A stretch of DNA of 64,000 nt, taken from positions 9,278-73,277 of the forward strand of contig DASZHL010000030.1 in assembly GCA_035937855.1 (NCBI GenBank). Direction: 5' to 3'. Shown in pieces: positions 5,044 through 48,430 of this stretch. This DNA comes from Vulcanimicrobiaceae bacterium. Lineage in GTDB: Bacteria; Vulcanimicrobiota; Vulcanimicrobiia; Vulcanimicrobiales; Vulcanimicrobiaceae. The position numbers and the translations under genes were made by a program. Each line of letters starts with the position of its first letter. Positions within the stretch are counted from its first letter, which is position 1. The notes beneath the pieces are model-generated. The model ran no database searches. It was not told the origin of the DNA and saw nothing but the letters and a program-made list of their open reading frames with translations.

Positions 5044-6483
5044 ATGAACAATTCTACGACGAAAGTCAATTCATTAGAGCGGGAACCAGTTAAAGCAAGC
5101 GACCAGCCATCCCGTGTCCCCGGTGTCGCCCTCTACGTCGGTGAGGCCGGCTGCCCTCACCCTTTTGATGGTAGTGAGTCAACACCGTGCTTCATTGTCG
5201 GAGTGTTGGTGACGCCCGAAGCCGAAGCGTTTCGATCGGAAATAGAAGCGTTTCGCGCCACGCAACATTATCATGGGCCTTATCGCTGGAGCGAGACTAG
5301 CGACCACGCCGCTCGTCAAGCGTATCTAAATTTAGCGGAATATTTGCAAGCGGGAACTTCATCTGCATGGGATTTTCATGCGACGCGCTTTCCATCAAGG
5401 AACGTAAATCGGGAAGATTTTGGACACGACCGGTCTTATGCGTCTAGAAAAACCCTTCAAATAGGAATCGATGAAGCGCTAAAAGCGATGAGCCCTGAGG
5501 TTGGAGGACACCTTCAGATCGTTCTCCCCCGTAAAAGGCGCGACGGCAAAACGGCATATCAGCTTTCAGCTACAATCGAATATTTAGAAAAATACTATTC
5601 TGATCGCTTTCCAATGACGCAGATTGAAATCAAGTGGCGCGAGCCTGGGAGCGATCGAAACCTTGAAATTTGCAATCTTTTCGCTTCATCTCATCATTCA
5701 TATTTTACTCCTGATGAATGCGGATTCCCAAAGTGGAAAACTGCGAAGGCATATGCTGCACTTGGAAAGTGTTCTTATCAAGAATATATAGAACACTTCT
5801 TGCATCCACAAGAAATTCTCGCCGATTCACCGCCGAAAACCCGTGAGGATTTCGTCCAGGCGGCAATTGAAACGCTGCATGCAAAATATGGGGCCACGTC
5901 GAGAGACATCCGCGAAGAGCCGGCTTCTCAGGCTATTAGTGAAAAACCAAAACTTGCGGCAAACGGCAAGCTCGTTGCAATAGAGACGAGCGAGAACGCT
6001 TTCGTCGTGGTGAATCGCTGGGACTATCCACGCGGAACATTTCACCGGGAACTGGTTTCTATCGACCCTCACGAGGCATGTCCGAACGGATACGTCCGGC
6101 AAACTCCATCGAGCAGGGATGTTCTCGTAGAAGATGCTCGCGCGATTCTCGCTGATCGGCTAGGCGTACCAGCGGAAAGAATCATCGAGAAAATACGCCC
6201 ACCGTATGGCACTCTAGAAGGCGAGGTGATCGCGCTGGGAGAAAAACATTTCGCCGTCGTCAGACCATCAGAAAACCGACGCTTTACGATCGTCAAACCG
6301 GAGGTTTTCTCTTTTGAAAAACCGGCTGTGGGCGATTATGTACGGATCAAATTTTCCGGGAAGTTTACCGAAGGAACCCTCGTGCATCGCCCTGTTCTCC
6401 GTCACGAATCACAAGGCCGAAAGGCGGAATCTGTGCGCGATAAAGACGGGCAGGGAGCAAAATCCCTCGCGCATAGAATTTAA
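5044..6483 (+). CDS. DUF3800-like N-terminal domain fused to a conserved beta-rich C-terminal region (paralog 1)
   Basis: 479-aa ORF with a GGAAGG RBS, paralogous to 13407..14918. N-terminal YVGEAG...FIVGVLV...NLEICNLF resembles the DUF3800 DES/QxxD layout but is degenerate. The C-terminal GKLVAIETSENAFVVVNRWDYPRG and GEVIALGEKHFAVV...GDYVRIKF repeats are SH3/KfrB-like (tentative). Confidence 0.6.
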   Translation: MNNSTTKVNSLEREPVKASDQPSRVPGVALYVGEAGCPHPFDGSESTPCFIVGVLVTPEAEAFRSEIEAFRATQHYHGPYRWSETSDHAARQAYLNLAEYLQAGTSSAWDFHATRFPSRNVNREDFGHDRSYASRKTLQIGIDEALKAMSPEVGGHLQIVLPRKRRDGKTAYQLSATIEYLEKYYSDRFPMTQIEIKWREPGSDRNLEICNLFASSHHSYFTPDECGFPKWKTAKAYAALGKCSYQEYIEHFLHPQEILADSPPKTREDFVQAAIETLHAKYGATSRDIREEPASQAISEKPKLAANGKLVAIETSENAFVVVNRWDYPRGTFHRELVSIDPHEACPNGYVRQTPSSRDVLVEDARAILADRLGVPAERIIEKIRPPYGTLEGEVIALGEKHFAVVRPSENRRFTIVKPEVFSFEKPAVGDYVRIKFSGKFTEGTLVHRPVLRHESQGRKAESVRDKDGQGAKSLAHRI

Positions 6484-6532
6484 GTCAAGATAAAAAAGGG
6501 TACCATCTCGCCATAAACAGAAAGCTCCTCCG

Positions 6533-7120
6533 ATGAACGCACGCATCGTTCCGGTCATTTACGGGTCGGTCAGGACCGATCGCCAGGGAATCAAGGCCGC
6601 TCGCTTTGTAGTCAAGGAGCTTGAACGTCGCGGATACCATGCGGTGCTCGTCGATCCGCTCGAACGGCCCCTACCGTTGCTCGATCGGATGTACAAGCAA
6701 TTCGCTGCGGGTAAGGCGCCCAAGGTTCTCAGGGACTTGGCCGAGTTGTTCGTGAGTGCGGATGGTTTCATCGTCGTGTCCGGTGAGTATAACCACGGTA
6801 TACCGCCCGCGCTCAAGAACCTCATGGATCACTTCCTGGAGGAATATTTTTGGCGTCCCGCAGCCATCGTGTCGTATTCGGGCGGCAACTTCGGCGGCGT
6901 ACGCGCGGCCGTACAGTTGCGCTCGGTTCTTGGCGAAATGGGGATGGTCACGATCCCGACCAGCCAACCATTCCCGCACGTTGGCAACGCGTTCACCGAT
7001 GACGGCGAGCCTACCGATCCTAAGACACGAGACCGCATGGTGCCCTTCTTCGATGAATTCGCCTGGTATGTAGACGCGCTCCGCGAACAACGCCGCAAAG
7101 GCGTCCCGGACGGTGCCTAG
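6533..7120 (+). CDS. NAD(P)H-dependent FMN reductase family oxidoreductase
   Basis: IPVIYGSVRTDRQG...DGFIVVSGEYNHGIPPALKNLMDHF...AAIVSYSGGNFGG is a typical FMN_red/flavodoxin-like fold. Confidence 0.85.
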   Translation: MNARIVPVIYGSVRTDRQGIKAARFVVKELERRGYHAVLVDPLERPLPLLDRMYKQFAAGKAPKVLRDLAELFVSADGFIVVSGEYNHGIPPALKNLMDHFLEEYFWRPAAIVSYSGGNFGGVRAAVQLRSVLGEMGMVTIPTSQPFPHVGNAFTDDGEPTDPKTRDRMVPFFDEFAWYVDALREQRRKGVPDGA

Positions 7121-9208: not shown

Positions 9209-10678
9209 TCATGCAATAGCAAAAACATCCGTTTCTCCAGAGCGGATCAGATAGGCACGAAGACGATCGCGGAATTCTTCGATTTCCGGCATACTGGGGT
9301 AATGGTCTTGAACTTCGCGATGGAATTGAACGAGACGGTCGACGATCCGCGAGGATCGAATCCCGCAAGCGAAGTTCATCACCGAATGACCAAGATTGAC
9401 GGCCTCGCCAGGCTCGCCTTGAAGCAGTCGGACATTCATCAAACGGATGGTATCTAAGGCTCTACCCCTGAAATAAGGGACTTTTCGTCCTTCAAGGGTG
9501 ACGAGAACATGCTGTTCTGCTTGCGCCGTATAACCTGACGCGGAATCGCGTGACCCATCACGCCGAGCCATGTTCAAGTATGTCGTCGCGATCCAACGGT
9601 GAATCGCCGCTAAGTTCAAGCTATTGAATACCGGCAGCATTGGATCATTTGTAGCATTTCTACTCGCATCCATACTTGCCTCAATGGCGCGATGAGCATC
9701 CAATGAGTTCCCTACCCGCGCCTGCGTAGCCGCAAAAACGCCAAAAAGCTCAGCCTGTACGAGCCCCTGCCGACGTGTAGGTAAACAGCTAATGGCAAAG
9801 GAAAGAAATTTCAATGCATCCTGATGTTTTCCCATCGCAATGGCGATGCACGACATATCACCGATAACTTTGGCGGCAATCAGGTGATTTCCAGCTTCTC
9901 GGCAAAAATGAAGTGCCAAGGAATAATAGCGTTGCGCCAATCCATATAATCGACAATCATATGACATTAAGCCTGCTTGCTGAGCCATTTGTGCGGCTAC
10001 TTCAAATAGCCGCGTTTTAATGGCTCCTGGAGGCGTTTCTTCAAGAAGCTCTCCAACCGCTCGCACTTGCCCAATCACTGCTTTCCGCATGTGCGTGCCA
10101 TTTTGAGAACCCCACTTAGAGAATTCCATAATTTTTTCTTCGAGATCAGCCACCTCAGTGAGGCCAACCTGATGAGGTTGAGATTGTCCCGTCATAATCG
10201 TGGTTGCTGGAGAAATGGTTCCTACTAACTGCATGATTGGTCTCAGCAGAAGGGAGCCGGAAATCGCGGTCATCGTAGCTAGGGCATCCCGTCGGCTGGC
10301 GATGTCGCTCGCGGTTACACTTTGTAAAGTCACTATTGCCTCTGAAGTGGTTAATTGGGAGATGTCTCTGGCATTCAAGCATTGAGTTCGTACTGCAGGC
10401 TCTCCAGAAATTGCCTGGCGAGAGTTGACATAGGCCCCATCGGCTTTCGGTGCCTTAAACCCGAGGTCTTCCTCTGTTGCCTGGTAAAAACGGCAGAGGA
10501 GGCGACGATAGTGCCTACGGGGTCTCTTTTTACCGCGTTCCCACTTTGAGATCACGGACGCGTCCACCTTGACCTCCAAGCCATCGGCTGCGGCGAGTCG
10601 GACCAATTCTTCAGCAACCTCCTCTTGAGTGATGCCGCGCCTAAGGCGGAAATCTTGAAGGCGATCAGTGCCACTCAT
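9209..10678 (-). CDS. XRE-family HTH regulator with long TPR-like helical C-terminal domain
   Basis: N-terminal LRRGITQEEVAEEL...VISKWERGKKRP HTH. About 400 aa of helical repeats follow (YYSLALHFCREAGN, IGDMSCIAIAMGKHQDALKF). I prefer the ATG at 10678 over the TTG at 10702. Confidence 0.7.
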   Translation of the reverse strand: MSGTDRLQDFRLRRGITQEEVAEELVRLAAADGLEVKVDASVISKWERGKKRPRRHYRRLLCRFYQATEEDLGFKAPKADGAYVNSRQAISGEPAVRTQCLNARDISQLTTSEAIVTLQSVTASDIASRRDALATMTAISGSLLLRPIMQLVGTISPATTIMTGQSQPHQVGLTEVADLEEKIMEFSKWGSQNGTHMRKAVIGQVRAVGELLEETPPGAIKTRLFEVAAQMAQQAGLMSYDCRLYGLAQRYYSLALHFCREAGNHLIAAKVIGDMSCIAIAMGKHQDALKFLSFAISCLPTRRQGLVQAELFGVFAATQARVGNSLDAHRAIEASMDASRNATNDPMLPVFNSLNLAAIHRWIATTYLNMARRDGSRDSASGYTAQAEQHVLVTLEGRKVPYFRGRALDTIRLMNVRLLQGEPGEAVNLGHSVMNFACGIRSSRIVDRLVQFHREVQDHYPSMPEIEEFRDRLRAYLIRSGETDVFAIA

Positions 10679-10886
10679 CTCTCTTTTTCTTCGCTCCAAC
10701 AACTCCAGGGTGATCTTCTCTGGACGGGAATGATCCTTAACCGATTGAAGGGGTATCCTTTAAACGAGAGGTCGCGATCAAATGTGCTCAATTGGACCAA
10801 TGAGACCATAAATTGAACCATATGATCGTTGCGACGATGCTGACCGTTATGCTTTTTTATGGGATGGTACTATATTGGAGGTGAAC

Positions 10887-11283: not shown

Positions 11284-12552
11284 TCATTCGTGATCATAAT
11301 TTTGTGCCGTGTATAGGAGAAACGTATCAGCCGCACCAAGTGCATCTCGGTCTTTGAGTGCATTGAGGCCAGAAACGGTTAGGCCGGTTGAAAGAGCGAA
11401 GCCACTTCCGGCAAGAATCGGTTCGTGTGTAACCAGGCCTACAATTCCAAGAGTGGCCCCAAGCGCTGCACCGGAGAAATCACGGAACAATGTAGCGAAA
11501 TTCCGATTTAGGTGTGTTCGTAGTCCCTCTAGTGAAGGCGAAATAACATCTTCGTAGATCTCTCTACTGATTTTCTCACATTGAGGATCCTCGATGGTTT
11601 TAACGCGTTCGTGAATCGCCTTACGCAATGTGCTTTGATAAAGCTTAAATGAGTCCTCAAAATCTTCGCGTAATTCATATAACTTCTTGAGCGGAACCTC
11701 GTCGATGAATGGTAACTCTATATTGAATGCAACTTGGTTCGTAAGATTCCCCTCGGGGGATGCTGCGTAACGCAAAAGGAAGCTTTCAGTTGGATCCAAT
11801 GAAGCGATGGTTGCATCTGTTTTTTTTGCGAGATATAGATTGGTTGACGTGGTACATAAACCTTGGTCAACAACTATCCGGGTTAACTCTTGGTGAATTC
11901 CTCGGGGATTTTTAGTCTTGATCCAGTTATCTTTCATGAGAAATCCTTCGTATATCTTAAACTTCTCACTCTCAAATTCGAGATATCGATGAGTTTTCCC
12001 ACTTCGTTTCCCGTTACGAATTTTACTCTCCTTAAGGAGAGTTTCGGTAAGACGATCACTAGGGAGAGCATTATTAGAGGATGGAAAATCCAGGTCGGTC
12101 GCCGCATGAGCGCAATCGCCACTGCAAAAAATAGATTTTGAGGAAAGCTTCAAGAGATTCTCGGCGTCAGCATTCTTAGCGATAAGCAGGGCATCAAGCC
12201 AACCGCCAAGTTTCCCTAAGTCTGCTTTGTCGTGCGGATAGAGAACGATTTCATGCGTAAGGTCGGATACTATGACTGAGTCAAAATAATGCCATGTGCG
12301 ACGAAGTAAAAACTCAGCTTCGCCTGCGATACAGGATCGTTCTGCACAAGAACTACCAGAAAAATCAAGGCCCGATCCTGCAAGTACTGTTGGATTATTA
12401 GTTATCGGTTCGATCGTCATTTCTCTAGCTTGTTGTGCAGCTTGACGAAATCTACTATAGAGAATAGGACTTCCTAAAAAACGATCAATATCAATGCTTT
12501 TATGAATACGGTTTTGTTCAAACCAATCGAAAACCCAAAACCTCTGTTCCAC
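11284..12552 (-). CDS. hypothetical protein, very AT-rich orphan with Gly/Ala/Ser/Thr-rich C-terminal segment
   Basis: 422-aa uninterrupted ORF starting at GTG with a GGAGGG RBS. I recognise no motif. The C-terminus SGAALGATLGIVGLVTHEPILAGSGFALSTGLTVSGLNAL is glycine-zipper-like. Confidence 0.7.
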   Translation of the reverse strand: MEQRFWVFDWFEQNRIHKSIDIDRFLGSPILYSRFRQAAQQAREMTIEPITNNPTVLAGSGLDFSGSSCAERSCIAGEAEFLLRRTWHYFDSVIVSDLTHEIVLYPHDKADLGKLGGWLDALLIAKNADAENLLKLSSKSIFCSGDCAHAATDLDFPSSNNALPSDRLTETLLKESKIRNGKRSGKTHRYLEFESEKFKIYEGFLMKDNWIKTKNPRGIHQELTRIVVDQGLCTTSTNLYLAKKTDATIASLDPTESFLLRYAASPEGNLTNQVAFNIELPFIDEVPLKKLYELREDFEDSFKLYQSTLRKAIHERVKTIEDPQCEKISREIYEDVISPSLEGLRTHLNRNFATLFRDFSGAALGATLGIVGLVTHEPILAGSGFALSTGLTVSGLNALKDRDALGAADTFLLYTAQNYDHE

Positions 12553-12601
12553 GTTATGCCCTCCACGAATCAGCGCTATTAAGAGAGTGCATGTTATCCA
12601 C

Positions 12602-12829
12602 CTAACCTACAGCTTCGAGTGAAACCAAACGTGAGAGTGGCACCCGTAGCGTCCCCTTAACCCAGCCATGCTGCGGACGATATGGGGTCACCTCGAGCAC
12701 CACGAGATCAGGTTTAACCGACCATACGAGCCCAACGCCACCTGGGGGGAAATCGAGATCGAGTTGTCCCGCGTCGGTCTTGAAAGTTACCTGACGGCCG
12801 GAAAATTTTTTCGCTTCGTCGAATTTCAT
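12602..12829 (-). CDS. small hypothetical protein (75 aa), upstream partner of the 422-aa orphan
   Basis: ATG with an AGAGG RBS. Lies 49 nt upstream of, and co-oriented with, 11284..12552. No recognisable motif. Confidence 0.45.
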   Translation of the reverse strand: MKFDEAKKFSGRQVTFKTDAGQLDLDFPPGGVGLVWSVKPDLVVLEVTPYRPQHGWVKGTLRVPLSRLVSLEAVG

Positions 12830-13406: not shown

Positions 13407-14918
13407 ATGATGGAGAATTTTCAGGCGGAAGTCAATCCCTCCTCAGCGCAGGATGAGCTTGTTCGCCTCGAAGCGAGTAAGCAAGGATCTCTCGCTCGCG
13501 GCTTATCGCTATATGTTGATGAAGGTGGCTCCTCTCATCCATTCAATGGAAGTGAACGCAAACCATACTTCATCATCGGAGTCTTGGTGACGCCGGAACA
13601 CGAGGCTTTTCGATCGGAAATAGAAGCGTTTTGCGCTACGCAGCGTTATCAGGGACCGTATCATTGGATCGAGCAATCCAAGTCTGAACTAGGGCAACAA
13701 CAAACAGAAGCGTACCGAAACCTTGCCGAATACATAAGAGCGGGAACTTCATCTGCATGGGATTTCCACGCGAGGCTCTTTCCAGCGATAAATGTAAACG
13801 AGGAAGACTTCGGTCATAGCCAGCATTATGCATACAAAAAACTCCTTCAAATTGGGATCGACGAAGCGTTAGACGCGACGAGCTTCAAGGTCGGCAAACG
13901 CCTCGAAATCATTCTTTCCGGCAAGAGTCGTGACAGCACGAAAGCCAATGGTGATTCAAAATTAAAGGACACTAAAAGATACTTAGAAGAACATTATTCC
14001 ACGCAGTTCCCCGAAGCCGAGATTGAAGTCCGATGGGTCCCGCAAGAGACGGATCGTAACTTACAAATCTGCGATATGTTCACTTCAACGTATCATACAT
14101 ATATAACGCCTGACCACTGCAAAAATACTCAAAAGTGGGATCTTGCAAAGGTCTATAGTTCGCTTATAAAATGCGATTACCAAGAATACATGGACCACAC
14201 CTTGCACCCTCAGGAAGTTCTCTCAGATGCACCGCCAAGAAACCGTGAAGATATCATTAAGGCGGCAATCAAAAAACTACATGCAAAATATGGAACTCTC
14301 TCGGAAGGCGTCCGTGAGGAAATCGCTTCTCATGCTATCGACAAAAAACCAAAACTCGCGGAAAACGGCAAGCTCGTCGCGATAGAGACGAGCGAGAACG
14401 CTTTCGTCGTAGTGAATCGCTGGGACTATCCCCGCGGAACATTTCTCAGAGAACTGGTTTCCATCGATCCTCAGAAGGCACGTCCACACGAACATCTCCA
14501 GCAAATTCCATCGAACAGGGATATCGTCGTACAAGACGCTCGCGCGGTTCTCGCCGATCGGCTGGGTATACCGCCGGAGAAAATCATCGAGAAAGCCCGC
14601 CCTCCGCGCGGCACTCTTGAAGGCGAAGTGATCGCGCTGGGAGAGAAGCATTTCGCCGTCGTCAGTTCATTCGAAAACGGACGGTTTACGATCGTCCAGT
14701 CCGACGTTTTCTCTTTTGAAAAACCGGCAGTAGGGGACCAAATTCGGATCAAATTTGTCGGGAGGTCTACCGAAGGAACCGTCGTGCATCGGCCTGGTCT
14801 CCGTCATGAATCGCAAGACCGAAAGATGCAATATATACGCGATAGAGACGGGCAAAGAGCTAAATCGCTAGCGCAGAGAAACCAAGTCAAGATAAAGAAG
14901 GGTACGATTTCACTATGA
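13407..14918 (+). CDS. DUF3800-like N-terminal domain + conserved C-terminal region (paralog 2)
   Basis: 503 aa. YVDEGG and NLQICDMF keep DE(S)-like and QxxD-like motifs. The C-terminal half is nearly identical to paralog 1 (KPKLAENGKLVAIETSENAFVVVNRWDYPRGTF). Confidence 0.6.
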   Translation: MMENFQAEVNPSSAQDELVRLEASKQGSLARGLSLYVDEGGSSHPFNGSERKPYFIIGVLVTPEHEAFRSEIEAFCATQRYQGPYHWIEQSKSELGQQQTEAYRNLAEYIRAGTSSAWDFHARLFPAINVNEEDFGHSQHYAYKKLLQIGIDEALDATSFKVGKRLEIILSGKSRDSTKANGDSKLKDTKRYLEEHYSTQFPEAEIEVRWVPQETDRNLQICDMFTSTYHTYITPDHCKNTQKWDLAKVYSSLIKCDYQEYMDHTLHPQEVLSDAPPRNREDIIKAAIKKLHAKYGTLSEGVREEIASHAIDKKPKLAENGKLVAIETSENAFVVVNRWDYPRGTFLRELVSIDPQKARPHEHLQQIPSNRDIVVQDARAVLADRLGIPPEKIIEKARPPRGTLEGEVIALGEKHFAVVSSFENGRFTIVQSDVFSFEKPAVGDQIRIKFVGRSTEGTVVHRPGLRHESQDRKMQYIRDRDGQRAKSLAQRNQVKIKKGTISL

Positions 14919-14934
14919 ACAGTAGGCTCAGCCG

Positions 14935-15520
14935 ATGAACACACGCATCGTCCCCGTCATTTACGGGTCGGTCCGGACCGATCGCCAGGGAATCAAGGCC
15001 GCTCATTTCGTGGTTAAGGAGCTTGAACGTCCAGGATACCATGCGGTTCTCGTCGATCCGCTCGAACGTCGCATTCCGCTTCTCGATCGGAGTATAAGCA
15101 ATTTGCCGAGGGTGAGGCGCCCAAGGTTCTCAGGGACTTGGCCGAGATGTTCGTGAGCGCGGACGGTTTCATCGTCGTTTTTGGTGAGTATAACCACGGT
15201 ATACCGCCCGCGCTTAAGAACCTCATGGATCATTTCATGGAGGAATATTTTTGGCGTCCCGCGGCCATCGTGTCCTATTCGGGCGGCAGCTTCGGCGGCG
15301 TACGCGCGGCCGCGCAGTTGCGCTCGGTTCTCGGCGAAATGGGAATGGTCACGATCCCGACCAGCCAACCATTCCCGCACGTTGGCAACGCGTTCACCGA
15401 CGACGGCGAGCCGACCGATCCTAAGACACGAGAACGCTAGGTACCCTTTTCTATGAATTCACTTGGTTTGTAGATGCGCTCCGCGAACAACGCTGTAAAG
15501 GCATTCCGGACGGATGCTAG
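14935..15520 (+). pseudogene. FMN reductase pseudogene (copy of 6533..7120)
   Basis: About 90% nt identity to 6533..7120. It has a 1-nt deletion near 15091 (cggatgtacaag vs cgga-gtataag), an in-frame TAG at 15436-15438 (cgcatggtg vs cgctaggta) and a further 1-nt deletion. The ORF track splits it into 14935..15156 and 15138..15440. Confidence 0.85.
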
Positions 15521-29667: not shown

Positions 29668-32600
29668 TCATCCGGTGAGGCGACGAAGGACCGAGTCAAG
29701 GCGTTCCCGAGCGCCGGGATGATCTTGTCGAGCGGCGAGTCGATACCATTGAGCCGCTTGTTCGAGGTCTTGCGTGACGCCGAGGCCGTTTTCGTACATC
29801 CGGCCGAGATGATCCTGTGCATGGGCGTCACCTTGTTCGGCGGCTTTGCGGTACCACCGCATCGCCTGTTCGTCGTTCCGCTCGGTGCCCTCTTTGGCAT
29901 AGAGGTCGGCGAGATGTCGCTGAGCTTGGACATGACCTTGATTGGCGGCTTGGTGCAGCCAATGCAATGCTTGTTGCTCGTCTCGCTCGACGCCGATTCC
30001 GTCTTTGAACGAGAGACCGATCTTGAACGGACTCTCGGCATCTTCGTCACCGCGGTCGTCGGTCAATTCAATATCGCCCTCACTGGTGAGGGAGGAGAAG
30101 ATGAGGGCAAATCGTGCGTCGGTCGACAGTGGATTGGCCTGCGCAACATCAGGGGATTCGCTCGGAATGCCCTGATGTTCGCGGAGGAGACCCTGCGCAT
30201 ACATCTCGCCGATGCTGAATTTCGCTTGCCGGTGGCCTTGATCAGCGGCTTTGCGGAACCAATAGACGGCTTCACTATAGTTTTGCGATGTGCCGAGGCC
30301 CGCCCTTCGGAGATTTCCGATCTCGAATTGAGCATCGGCATGACCTTGATCGGCGGCTTTACGCAGCCAATGCATGGCTTGCTCGTAATCGTGCGGAACG
30401 CCGGATCCTTCGAGGGAGAACATACCCAAACGATATTGCGCATTCGCAAAATCTTGTTCGGCAGCTTTCCTCAACCATTGAATTGCTTGCGCGAAATCTT
30501 GACCGACGGCATTGCTTGAAGCGGAAAGAATGCCCAGATCACATTGCGCTTGCGCATGGCCTTGTTCAGCGGCCTTGTGATACCACCAGAGTGCGTATTC
30601 GATATTTTGCTTCGTGCCGTATCCCTTTTCGTAGAGGAGGCCGACGCGATGCTGGGCGTCCGCATACCCTTGTTCGGCGGCCCGGCGATACCAGCGCATA
30701 GCCTGAGTGTAATCTTGCGTTACTCCCCACCCGTTCTCATATAAGTGTCCGACGTGGAATTTCGCGGGAGAATGTCCTCGCTCGGCGGCTTGGAGATACG
30801 AATACATGGCTTGTGCAAAATCGCGCGGAACGCCCTTCCCGCTTTCGTAAAGATTTCCGATATTGGTGAGAGCGTACAAACTCCCTCGTTCGGCGGCTCT
30901 GCGGTACCAGGTCATCGCTTGAAGATAATCTTGCTTGAGGGCATATCCGTTCTCGTAGAAACGCCCAATGTTATTGAGGGCTGCACTCTCTCCTTGATCG
31001 GCAGCCATGCGATACCAACTGAGGGCCTCGGCATAGTCTTGCGGGACGCCTGATCCCTGTGCGTAGAGAAAGCCGACGTTGAATTGCGCGGGCGCATATC
31101 CTTGATCGGCCGCCTTGCGGTACCAGAGCATCGCATGCGTTGGGTCTTTGGGTACGCCGCTGCCGTCTTCGCAGAAGAGACCGATGCGGGTTTGGGCTCG
31201 AACGTGTCCTTGTTCGGCAGCATTGCGATACCATTTCAAGGCTTGAGCATAATCTTGAAGAACGCCCTTTCCGTCTTCGTAAAGCATGCCCAAGTTGAAT
31301 TGCGCGGCCTGATAGCCGTGATCGGCCGCATTTTTGTACCATTGCATCGCCTGGATATAATCTTGGAAGACGCCCTTGCCGTCTTCGTACATGACGCCGA
31401 GATTGTTTTGCGCGCCGAGATGGCCTTGCCTGGCGGCTCGGAGGTACCAGGTTATCGCTTGTCCGTAATCTTGCTTTACGCCGCGTCCCATTTCATAAAA
31501 ACGGCCGACCGCGAATTGTGCATCGAGATCACCAAAATTTGCGGCTTTGCGATACCAGTACATGGCCGCAACATCATCGCGCGCTACTCCACGCCCATGT
31601 TCGTGGAGCCCCGCGATGTTGAATTGCGCAAACGGACTTCCTTGCTCGGCGGCTTTCCCGTACCAATAGAGCGCCTGCGCATAATCTTGCGTGACACCCA
31701 AACCTCCGGCGTACAGATAGCCGACGTTTGTTTGTGCGTGCATTTCTCCTTGATCGGCCGCCTTGCGATACCAAAACAGCGCTTGGGCATAATCCCGCGT
31801 GACGCCGCGTCCCATGCGATAGAGCGTTCCAATCTCGCTTTGCGCAAAGGCGTGACCTTGATCGGCCGCCTTTCGGAACCATGACATCGCGTGCACGTAA
31901 TTTTGCGGCACGCCGAGCCCCTGTCGGTGAAATATCGCAATTTCGTATTGCGCCTCCGCGTAGCCTTTATGCGCGGCTTTGCGAATCCATGCCATCGCCT
32001 GCGCGTAATCTTGGCGAATGCCGTAGCCTTTCTTATAAAGGCAGCCGAGTTTGGTCTGAGCTTCGGCGTAGCCTCGATCAGCCGCTTTCAGGTACCAGGA
32101 AAGCGCTTGTACATAGTCTTGGGGAACGCCCATTCCCTCCTCGAAAAGAGTTCCGATCTCCGTTTGGGCCTGCAGATTTCCGCGATCTGCGGCTTTGGAG
32201 AACCACAGCATCGCCGTGTCCCAATCTCCTCTCATCATTAAGAGCATACCGAGGGAGTTTTGCGCGTCGGAGTCGTCTTGATCCGCAGCTTTGAGATACC
32301 AGAATTCCGCCGCTTCCTTATCGCACTCGTTTCCGAGACCTCGTTCGTAGAGGTCTGCGACGTTGCGTTGAGCTACAGCATCTCCTTGATCTGCGGCTTT
32401 GCGAAACCATTCCATCGCCTGGGCATAATCAGTCGGGACCCCGAGACCCTCCCGATATGCGAGTCCCATAGCAATTTGCGCGTCGGTCGAATCTTGATCC
32501 GCAGCTTTCCGATACCATGCAATGCCTTGTTGAAGGTCTTGCGCCGGCCCCAGTCCCCGCATACAGAGTTCGCCCATTTTCAATTGAGCGTGTACGTCGC

Positions 32601-33132
32601 CTTGCTCGGCGGCTTTGAGAAACCATGCGAGGGCCAGCGTGAGATCTCGCTCTACGCCGCGTCCATGGTACAAAGCGTCGCCGATTTCATATTGCGCATT
32701 TGGATGACCTTGATCGGCGGCTTTTTGATACCATCGCCTCGCGTGAATTGCATCGTTGGGCGTGCCGAACCCCGCGTCATAGCACTGCGCCAGAGCGAAT
32801 TGCGCTTGAACATTGCCTTGGTAAGCGGCCTTCTGAAACCAGGAGAGCGCTTCGGCGGAATCTTGAGGACCGTAGGGAACGCTCAAGCCGTTTTTGTAAA
32901 ACTGAGCGATTTTGTATTGGGCGTCCGCGAAGCCGTATTCTGCGGCCTTGCGATACCAGAACGCTGCTTGGAGGTAATCGCGTTCGCCGTCGCTGCCTTC
33001 TTCATACTGCGCCCCGAGAACGTATTGCGCGACGGCATCGCCTCGCTGCGCCGCAGTTTGCAGCCGCCTCGCAGCAATCAAGCGGCGAAGGCGTGTGAGA
33101 ATCGTGAAGAGGATAGACTTCCGGTTACGCAT
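29668..33132 (-). CDS. giant Sel1-like repeat (SLR) protein, ~30 repeats
   Basis: 1154 aa. I counted 27 consecutive units plus 3 terminal units of the form A..W[YF]rKAAeQG...AQ..lG..Ye.G.GV.qDy. Confidence 0.85.
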   Translation of the reverse strand: MRNRKSILFTILTRLRRLIAARRLQTAAQRGDAVAQYVLGAQYEEGSDGERDYLQAAFWYRKAAEYGFADAQYKIAQFYKNGLSVPYGPQDSAEALSWFQKAAYQGNVQAQFALAQCYDAGFGTPNDAIHARRWYQKAADQGHPNAQYEIGDALYHGRGVERDLTLALAWFLKAAEQGDVHAQLKMGELCMRGLGPAQDLQQGIAWYRKAADQDSTDAQIAMGLAYREGLGVPTDYAQAMEWFRKAADQGDAVAQRNVADLYERGLGNECDKEAAEFWYLKAADQDDSDAQNSLGMLLMMRGDWDTAMLWFSKAADRGNLQAQTEIGTLFEEGMGVPQDYVQALSWYLKAADRGYAEAQTKLGCLYKKGYGIRQDYAQAMAWIRKAAHKGYAEAQYEIAIFHRQGLGVPQNYVHAMSWFRKAADQGHAFAQSEIGTLYRMGRGVTRDYAQALFWYRKAADQGEMHAQTNVGYLYAGGLGVTQDYAQALYWYGKAAEQGSPFAQFNIAGLHEHGRGVARDDVAAMYWYRKAANFGDLDAQFAVGRFYEMGRGVKQDYGQAITWYLRAARQGHLGAQNNLGVMYEDGKGVFQDYIQAMQWYKNAADHGYQAAQFNLGMLYEDGKGVLQDYAQALKWYRNAAEQGHVRAQTRIGLFCEDGSGVPKDPTHAMLWYRKAADQGYAPAQFNVGFLYAQGSGVPQDYAEALSWYRMAADQGESAALNNIGRFYENGYALKQDYLQAMTWYRRAAERGSLYALTNIGNLYESGKGVPRDFAQAMYSYLQAAERGHSPAKFHVGHLYENGWGVTQDYTQAMRWYRRAAEQGYADAQHRVGLLYEKGYGTKQNIEYALWWYHKAAEQGHAQAQCDLGILSASSNAVGQDFAQAIQWLRKAAEQDFANAQYRLGMFSLEGSGVPHDYEQAMHWLRKAADQGHADAQFEIGNLRRAGLGTSQNYSEAVYWFRKAADQGHRQAKFSIGEMYAQGLLREHQGIPSESPDVAQANPLSTDARFALIFSSLTSEGDIELTDDRGDEDAESPFKIGLSFKDGIGVERDEQQALHWLHQAANQGHVQAQRHLADLYAKEGTERNDEQAMRWYRKAAEQGDAHAQDHLGRMYENGLGVTQDLEQAAQWYRLAARQDHPGARERLDSVLRRLTG
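30178..33054 (-). repeat. tandem ~108-bp coding repeat array (27 SLR units); 3 more units at ~29713-30027
   Basis: Periodicity is seen in the translation (aa 27-985). The array generates long spurious antisense ORFs (29608..30519, 31084..31884, 32260..). Confidence 0.85.
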
Positions 33133-47806: not shown

Positions 47807-48430
47807 TCAGCGAAGCATTTCTCTCAAATGGCTTAGCACAAATGCAGTGGTAGTTACGTCCGCGATTCCAGCTGAAAGCGACGTTGCGGTCACTTTCATA
47901 ATGTCGTCATGAGAGACTGCCCCAAAACCCATATCGGGCATGTCAGGTCCGGCATTTGCATCGACAATGAAAATCGTCTTATAATCCAGATCATGTGCAT
48001 GACGCGCCGTTGTGACCGAACAATAGTTCGTCATTAGGCCGGTAATGAGTACCGTATCTATTTTCTTTTCTTTCAATATATCCCGAAGTGGAGTGTTTAC
48101 AAATGCACTATAGCGGGTTTTCTCCACAACAATCTCTCCATCAGTTGGCAATAAATCCGGTATAAATTCTACAGACGCAGTACCTTCTATGAATACGGGC
48201 GTTGGATCAAAATCTCCCATTCGACCGAGATCTGACCCATCGGCTTTGTGCACGTGTTTCACAAAAACAACTTGCAAGCCAATTTGACGTGCAGCATCAC
48301 GAAGTTTCACCAAGTTCCCACGTATTTTTTCTGCATTTGGTGTGTAGAGAGGGCGATCATCGTCAAAGTACTCACGCTGCGGATCAATCAGCAAAAGAGC
48401 TGTCGTGGTTGCGTCAATCGGGTAAACCAT
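47807..48430 (-). CDS. isochorismatase-family cysteine hydrolase
   Basis: ALLLIDPQREYF, VFVKH and VLITGLMTNYCSVTTARHA (nucleophile Cys). Confidence 0.85.
   Translation of the reverse strand: MVYPIDATTTALLLIDPQREYFDDDRPLYTPNAEKIRGNLVKLRDAARQIGLQVVFVKHVHKADGSDLGRMGDFDPTPVFIEGTASVEFIPDLLPTDGEIVVEKTRYSAFVNTPLRDILKEKKIDTVLITGLMTNYCSVTTARHAHDLDYKTIFIVDANAGPDMPDMGFGAVSHDDIMKVTATSLSAGIADVTTTAFVLSHLREMLR

Follow-up and report, generated by a model that had tools for sequence, protein, structure and literature searches.

An AT-rich one-gene cassette from a Vulcanimicrobiaceae bacterium belongs to a large, unnamed and mobile protein family with a DUF6236-like C-terminal module

We analysed a 64,000-nt stretch of the genome of a Vulcanimicrobiaceae bacterium (assembly GCA_035937855.1, contig DASZHL010000030.1, positions 9,278 to 73,277; hereafter the window), focusing on a GTG-start gene of 422 aa on its minus strand (11284–12552, stop codon included). 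We found that this gene is an intact, horizontally acquired single-gene cassette, that its product is a member of a large, unnamed and rapidly diverging family of ~425-aa proteins, and that members of the family behave like mobile cassettes of one gene. The protein is best regarded as representing a new branch of a DUF6236-like superfamily, set apart by its N-terminal part. The best explanation overall, on which our confidence is evenly balanced, is that the horizontally acquired cassette encodes a stand-alone membrane-acting conflict protein. An earlier note on this DNA had presented the gene and a 75-aa open reading frame (ORF) next to it as an orphan pair and a candidate toxin or defence-type effector.

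A one-gene cassette of a large, unnamed family

Homologs of the 422-aa protein were sought with phmmer among 1.84 billion representative proteins, which returned 445 clusters at E < 1e-3, 245 of them at E < 1e-10; this exhaustive search was used in place of a word-indexed one, which was insensitive for the family (2 matches). Nearly all homologs were 415–440 aa long and aligned end to end at 22–31% identity. The label of orphan thus fits the 75-aa ORF, for which no homolog was found, and fails for its larger neighbour. We aligned 60 family sequences (alignment A1) and found conservation of W6, W10, C143 and the motifs AG.G.DLSG..C....C, WHYFD.IVV.D and IGAE, and also of LP.L.G.P...L..LR..E..F..FR..LR.AI.ER, D.IEP, a Gly/Ala/Thr-rich hydrophobic stretch and a terminal SDMYFLWKA. 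Of the 47 positions with at least 80% conservation in the family, the window protein retains 34, and most of its substitutions are conservative. Its GTG start is supported because other members of A1 begin 2–5 residues before the conserved W6/W10.

A genome scan with a 14-sequence sub-alignment located family members at 35 loci, in Acidobacteriota, Actinomycetota, Eremiobacterota, Binatia, Gemmatimonadota, Verrucomicrobiota, Proteobacteria and CSSED10-310, the actinomycetote hosts being Streptomyces, Nonomuraea, Amycolatopsis, Micromonospora, Nocardia, Actinomadura, Planotetraspora, Solirubrobacterales and Acidimicrobiaceae. The family therefore occurs sporadically in at least seven phyla, mostly in soil bacteria, and is present in 5 of 401 genomes of the window's own phylum. 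Neither the 422-aa nor the 75-aa ORF matched Pfam, NCBIfam, PADLOC or PHROGs. The PADLOC check that the earlier note had proposed returned zero families for both ORFs at E ≤ 0.1 (PADLOC-DB v2.0.0), and likewise for a distant paralog. Weak matches of both ORFs in a relative (locus L002) fell in a housekeeping region with spoIID-like and queA-like genes and were dismissed as chance.

The 422-aa ORF has a GC content of 43.8% (37.4% at third codon positions, GC3) in a window of 55.8% GC and is the lowest-GC ORF among the 55 window ORFs of at least 200 aa, in agreement with its earlier description as the most AT-rich long ORF. It is preceded by a 49-nt leader (12553–12601, minus strand) that carries a ribosome-binding site (GGAGGG at 12559–12564), 6 nt ahead of the start codon (GGAGGG-CATAAC-GTG), and then by the co-oriented 75-aa ORF (12602–12829, minus strand, ATG start), so that the shared orientation of the ORFs, the gap between them and the GGAGGG-N6-GTG arrangement were borne out by the sequence. 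The two ORFs also differ in composition as had been claimed, the 75-aa ORF having 54.4% GC. A 150-nt sliding profile delimited an AT-rich block (~11475–12600) that ends at the 5′ end of the 422-aa gene and leaves out the 75-aa ORF; the block corresponds to the 422-aa gene plus its leader, with a compositional boundary between the two ORFs. Leaders of cassettes at other loci were likewise short (~50–90 nt).

The compositional foreignness attributed to the window gene was found family-wide. Family genes were lower in GC than their flanks in 35 of 36 loci, by a mean of 11 points (range −21 to +2; Wilcoxon p = 2e-7), and their GC (44–63%) was independent of host GC (54–72%; r = 0.13). Whatever its function, the family is a clear case of a gene whose GC content stays ~11 points lower than that of its host in nearly all genomes, whose sequence diverges much more rapidly than the genes around it and which turns up as an exact insertion within operons. 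What moves such cassettes, and what keeps them from being ameliorated, is a tractable question.

Evidence for exact insertion, with empty sites, comes from homologs; the window gene itself is missing in 60 close relatives of the window genome. The clearest case is an operon resembling that of glycolate oxidase, in which a family gene sits directly behind the glcE stop codon (...NPGRFIGGL*) and ahead of glcF, both in 'Ca. Elarobacter' (L022:9914-11298) and in a metagenome-assembled Eremiobacteraeota genome (L025:5893-7440). The two loci are syntenic, with flanking proteins 80–89% and flanking DNA ~80% identical, and the inserts (1,385 nt in L022 and 1,536 nt in L025) contain nothing other than the family gene. 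The site is empty in 29 of 29 other related genomes, where glcE directly adjoins or overlaps glcF (junction CTGAGTG in L060). The two alleles are only 55.6% identical as proteins, cannot be aligned as DNA and have a GC3 of 0.52–0.54, compared with ~0.9 in neighbouring genes, and the disparity between 56% allele identity and 80–89% flank identity indicates either fast evolution or allele replacement. Because the L025 flanks are closer to those of an empty congener (84–90%) than to those of L022 (78–81%), the insertions require two events or more. Apart from a 4-nt GTAG at both L022 junctions, terminal repeats were not seen. Among homologs, the one closest to the window protein (31% identity; L006:1531-2793) stands alone between prfA, which encodes RF-1, and prmC; it starts 59 nt past the prfA stop, its own stop overlaps the prmC start, and its GC is 48% between flanks of 69%.

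Predicted fold, C-terminal module and hydrophobic tail

An AlphaFold2 model of the 422-aa protein built on A1 was confident overall (predicted local distance difference test, pLDDT, 87.5; predicted template modelling score, pTM, 0.86). The predicted chain begins with three N-terminal helices and a small alpha/beta core (strands 55–58, 92–96 and 134–137), followed by a three-stranded beta-meander (177–207), long helices (216–245, 299–319 and 325–359), a hairpin (363–385) and two confident terminal helices. The hairpin is the sole low-confidence and poorly packed part (pLDDT 51–56), and the terminal helices fold back to pack on the body. The N-terminal body (residues 1–271; 11740–12552, minus strand) is family-specific, with pLDDT mostly above 90; it carries the motifs AG.G.DLSG..C....C, WHYFD.IVV.D and IGAE, and conserved acidic and cysteine residues at D63, D91, C69, C74 and C143. 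The most variable residues of the family are 101–120 and 161–220.

No relative of the N-terminal ~270 aa was found by sequence or by structure in the searches made. Foldseek, which the earlier note had recommended for models of both proteins, gave no significant structural relative for either. With the 422-aa model the best hit had E 0.03 in the PDB and E 0.23 in BFVD, and long alignments had TM-scores below 0.2; searching PDB sequences with a family profile returned only chance matches (E 0.098 or worse), and no likeness to nucleases, recombinases or transposases was detected by sequence or fold. A faint resemblance of the model to PIN-like HARP (TMt 0.35) was not used as evidence. As a confident model without a neighbour in PDB or BFVD, the protein is a reasonable target for structural genomics.

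The C-terminal module (residues 272–422; 11287–11739, minus strand) consists of LP..(v)P...L..LR..E..F..FR..LR.AI.ER, a long helix, the hydrophobic hairpin and a terminal amphipathic motif, which is SDMYFLWKA in the family consensus and ADTFLLYTA in the window protein. By hhalign it is homologous to the C-terminal half of Pfam DUF6236. We compared A1 with a second alignment (A4) of 25 DUF6236 proteins, drawn from a true DUF6236 gene of the same phylum (L056, 361 aa) and 51 of its relatives, and obtained a probability of 94.1% (E 1.3e-7) over 147 columns, the matched columns (275–429 in A1 and 185–347 in A4) including the hairpin and the terminal motif. The A1 profile also matched one single DUF6236 protein (73%, E 3e-5). 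Direct searches with the Pfam model were much weaker: positions 174–307 of PF19749 matched the C-terminal half of one family member in a six-frame search (23 bits; cut-off 26.2), 2 of the 60 aligned members matched weakly (best E 1e-4), PF19749 had no match in the window protein at E ≤ 0.1, and no member tested reached the 26.2-bit gathering cut-off. Homology of the N-terminal halves was rejected, as hhalign of the N-terminal sub-alignments gave a probability of 0.15% (E 0.38); the N-terminal core of DUF6236 reads ALYYPYI..F.D..WLK...LFYD.IYRIVP.

Two further proteins carry the C-terminal module alone, with differing N-terminal halves: a 422-aa ORF in genome G146 (L017:8785-10053) and a 402-aa hypothetical protein of Mycobacterium avium plasmid pP3-3a (WP_342314782.1; L059:5317-6525). 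From these the architecture is modular, and at least three N-terminal types occur with the common C-terminal module (the 422-aa family, DUF6236 and the C-terminal-only proteins), which suggests domain shuffling around it. The pP3-3a gene sits behind a very large gene with a methyltransferase domain. The true DUF6236 gene from Eremiobacterota (L056:940-2025) has an ORF of 298 aa and no known family (L056:19-915) 25 nt upstream.

Within the module, a Gly/Ala/Thr-rich hydrophobic hairpin (residues ~358–395, FSGAALGATLGIVGLVTHEPILAGSGFALSTGLTVSGL; 11368–11481, minus strand) is a candidate membrane-inserting element. Among 146 family members, 79% had a 19-residue Kyte-Doolittle mean above 1.6 within the last 100 residues, compared with 4% elsewhere in the proteins, and the family median of the 19-residue maximum was 1.83. 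The hydrophobic segment is composed of 20% A, 14% L, 14% G, 10% V and 9% T; in A1, G372 is invariant and G384 nearly so. The C-terminal residues quoted in the earlier note are present in the window protein and contain a literal GxxxGxxxG (G361-G365-G369), and fourfold small-xxx-small patterns are modestly enriched in the family (55% of members vs 41 ± 3.6% in shuffles). A small-residue-rich hydrophobic tail is therefore a real and conserved family feature.

Genomic context and candidate function

We assessed gene neighbourhoods at 36 loci. In an all-against-all BLAST of neighbours within ±6 genes, the largest cluster covered 5 loci and no cluster held a fixed position. The 116 proteins at ±1/±2 fell into 97 Pfam families, none found in more than three proteins; they included housekeeping products (ffh, glcD/E/F, prfA/prmC) and defence proteins, namely PtuA/PtuB, PDC-S59 and two reverse transcriptases (RTs), one of them a defence-associated reverse transcriptase (DRT UG23, 7e-139). 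Farther out, at ±3 to ±6 (128 proteins), the most frequent families were Phage_integrase (6), FtsK_SpoIIIE (FtsK/TraSA; 5) and RepSA (2), and AbiLi, PD-T4-6 and a type I restriction-modification (R-M) system occurred likewise. At one locus the family gene is divergent from Septu PtuA (1e-133) and PtuB (4e-49) with a Mutator transposase alongside; at another it lies between hsdMSR (type I R-M) and a WYL-WCX regulator, DUF2130 and the Mrr-like PDC-S02. Further copies lie beside a resolvase and an integrase, or behind an integrase and a small XRE gene. In Streptomyces (L003) a gene set of the pSAM2-type actinomycete integrative and conjugative element (AICE) adjoins the family gene, and neither att repeats nor a tRNA bounding an AICE-like element was found there.

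A single-protein exclusion or abortive-infection factor is favoured because of traits that commonly mark conflict genes: the gene is accessory, fast-evolving, persistently AT-rich and stand-alone, it is frequently located in integrative elements or defence islands, its product shares an output module with DUF6236, a family catalogued in a prophage defence hotspot, and a conserved hydrophobic hairpin stands out from a soluble body. As a stand-alone conflict protein it would act at the cytoplasmic membrane in phage or mobile-element exclusion or in abortive infection. Sensing or regulation would fall to the N-terminal body, whose variable beta-meander region (residues 161–220, the least conserved) is a candidate recognition surface, and the hairpin may anchor in or insert into the membrane, possibly oligomerising and leaking ions once triggered. 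We infer such a conflict or defence role with only moderate support. The earlier proposal of a defence-type effector thus holds in so far as homologs are accessory and often found in mobile or defence contexts (Septu, type I R-M with an Mrr-like protein, DRT, AbiLi and PD-T4-6), and it stays conjectural with regard to effector activity, as no PADLOC model matches.

Several observations weigh against this reading. A recognisable defence gene lay within ±6 genes in roughly a quarter of the 36 loci, a tally made without a matched control, and a quarter of loci is below the thresholds usual for nominating defence families. Several copies have housekeeping settings (prfA/prmC, glcE/glcF, ABC-transporter genes and ffh), and no recognised defence system was found in the window's own island. 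PADLOC, PHROGs and Pfam are all silent on the 422-aa protein, the family was not found in the phage collection, and carriage beyond chromosomes is scarce, comprising one partial relative (on M. avium plasmid pP3-3a) and one IMG/VR contig. No published experiment was found on the 422-aa family or, as far as could be verified, on DUF6236, and neither DUF6236 in main texts nor anti-phage proteins of the glycine-zipper type yielded anything relevant in literature searches. The window copy is also at the weak end of the family in hydrophobicity (Kyte-Doolittle 1.43). As for the glycine-zipper-like tail described earlier, its small-residue-rich hydrophobic character is conserved, while a strict zipper as a family feature was rejected, GxxxGxxxG occurring in 8% of the 146 members and in 5.0 ± 1.7% of shuffles. 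Because the window hairpin is marginally hydrophobic and the strict motif unconserved, membrane insertion is not established, and we treat it as a plausible candidate role only.

The main rival, which we regard as possible though somewhat unlikely, is a membrane-anchored accessory protein with no part in defence, which would serve a mobile element (entry or surface exclusion, AICE maintenance) or fill a niche envelope or stress role as hitch-hiking cargo. In its favour, the neighbours recognised most often are integrases and genes for AICE transfer and replication (FtsK/TraSA, RepSA, SpdB and NUDIX pif-like), most loci have no known defence gene and the family is essentially absent from phages; in the predicted model, moreover, docked terminal helices would be as compatible with a permanently anchored hairpin as with a latent pore. 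However, the family has no constant conjugation or replication partner, the largest neighbour cluster reaching 5 of 36 loci, and many copies are solitary insertions remote from element genes. The very rapid divergence of syntenic alleles (56% vs 80–89%), together with lasting AT-richness, is more typical of conflict genes. The precise insertions alone suggest a further, minor rival that we find very improbable, a selfish self-mobilising gene comparable to a free-standing homing gene, in which the N-terminal Asp and Cys residues (D63, D91, C69, C74, C143) would form a nuclease- or recombinase-like site. Gene-sized insertions at operon stop/start junctions (glcE|glcF in two lineages, with the closest relative empty, and prfA|prmC), sporadic distribution, AT-richness and the conservation of those residues would all fit, yet sequence and fold show no nuclease, recombinase or transposase similarity, the insertion sites are all different except for the glcE/glcF pair, terminal repeats are lacking apart from the 4-nt GTAG in L022, and a hydrophobic hairpin is unexpected in a DNA enzyme.

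The two-gene layout proposed in the earlier note, read here as a toxin–antitoxin (TA) or abortive-infection (Abi) module whose 75-aa protein would neutralise or regulate a membrane-active 422-aa protein, is largely refuted, and we consider it scarcely credible. The ORFs are co-oriented at a distance of 49 nt and could be co-transcribed, and no terminator-like site was found between them, promoter and terminator scans around the pair having performed no better than shuffles. The 75-aa ORF may also encode a real small all-beta protein, as its single-sequence AlphaFold2 model is a moderately confident six-stranded all-beta fold (pLDDT 74.9), the best PDB matches of which were Sm-like barrels at an insignificant E of 0.65 or worse. 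It is not conserved with the 422-aa gene, though, an outcome that the earlier note itself had named as refuting its proposal: tblastn found no match to it at 9 homolog loci of the 422-aa family, and in 301 genomes of the same bacterial family, searched in six frames, only the window itself matched. At the 36 loci, the gene directly upstream varies in strand, size (66–1424 aa), distance and family. TA and Abi models match neither ORF, the compositional boundary separates the two, and elsewhere the cassette consists of just one gene and its empty sites are exact. The 75-aa ORF adjoins the cassette without being related to it or acting as its partner.

A wider proposition, which we hold to be unlikely, would extend the favoured reading of a stand-alone conflict protein to the 422-aa family and DUF6236 together, as one large superfamily of effectors that each act as a single protein against phages or mobile elements and whose fold differs from all solved structures. 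Swappable N-terminal sensors would be joined to a common module with a Gly/Ala-rich hairpin that enters the membrane once triggered. Its members would travel as ~1.4-kb promoter-plus-ORF cassettes that land precisely between host genes by an undescribed mechanism and are kept AT-rich in GC-rich hosts. If the favoured reading holds, several hundred clusters in soil Actinomycetota, Acidobacteriota and candidate phyla, which are under-sampled for defence, would gain a function, and the catalogued DUF6236 of enterobacterial prophage hotspots would be tied to a much wider modular superfamily.

Within the window, the pair lies between two repeats, as had been noted: diverged copies of a DUF3800 + reductase module flank it at ~5093–6990 and ~13471–15391 (71–93% identity). 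Both ORFs belong to an AT-richer island of ~15 kb, with 51.0% GC when the 422-aa gene is excluded vs 57.4% outside. The gene downstream of the 422-aa gene (9209–10702, minus strand) encodes an NsdA-family regulator with an XRE helix-turn-helix and tetratricopeptide repeats (NCBIfam NF053720, 3e-68). The NsdA family is best known from Streptomyces, and its presence in an Eremiobacterota genome is hence of note; no regulator was consistently linked to the 422-aa family at other loci. Elsewhere in the window, a 207-aa ORF (47807–48430, minus strand) ranks second in AT-richness among ORFs of 200 aa or more (GC 45.6%, GC3 40.6%, surroundings ~55% GC) and is possibly foreign too. A 1154-aa ORF (29668–33132, minus strand) contains, at 29722–32745, some 19 diverged tandem repeats of a 108-nt unit (36 aa), indicating a large repeat protein.

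Comparison with known systems

The closest likeness of the 422-aa family is to DUF6236, which is gene set #125 in the catalogue of P2 prophage defence hotspots (supplementary file 6 of Rousset et al. 2022, PMC9122126). In the C-terminal ~150 residues of both, a P...L..(F/L)R helix and a long helix precede a Gly/Ala-rich hydrophobic hairpin and a conserved terminal motif, and both are single-gene accessory cargo. The 422-aa family differs in its N-terminal ~270 residues, which show no detectable similarity, in its length (~425 aa, compared with ~290–365 aa in the DUF6236 proteins examined) and in its hosts, which are mainly soil Actinomycetota, Acidobacteriota and Eremiobacterota, where it is found in chromosomes and integrative elements and not in phage records.

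Membrane-disrupting components that act as single proteins or effectors, such as SLATT proteins and the two-helix transmembrane effectors of cyclic-oligonucleotide-based anti-phage signalling systems (CBASS), retrons and DRTs, resemble the family in that its predicted hydrophobic helical hairpin could act on a membrane and that some copies occur in defence islands, where one neighbour matches an RT-associated SLATT model. Unlike these, the 422-aa protein has no PADLOC similarity and no partner sensor or enzyme, and its membrane activity is putative throughout. The arrangement in the window, with a small ORF ahead of a larger and possibly toxic one, recalls type II TA and two-gene Abi modules, but the small ORF is not conserved with the 422-aa gene and neither protein belongs to a TA or Abi family. 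The family resembles phage morons and free-standing homing-endonuclease genes in its exact one-gene insertion between abutting genes, its empty sites, a GC below that of the host and its sporadic occurrence, whereas it inserts in bacterial chromosomes and integrative elements, not in phage genomes, and has no detected nuclease motif or fold.

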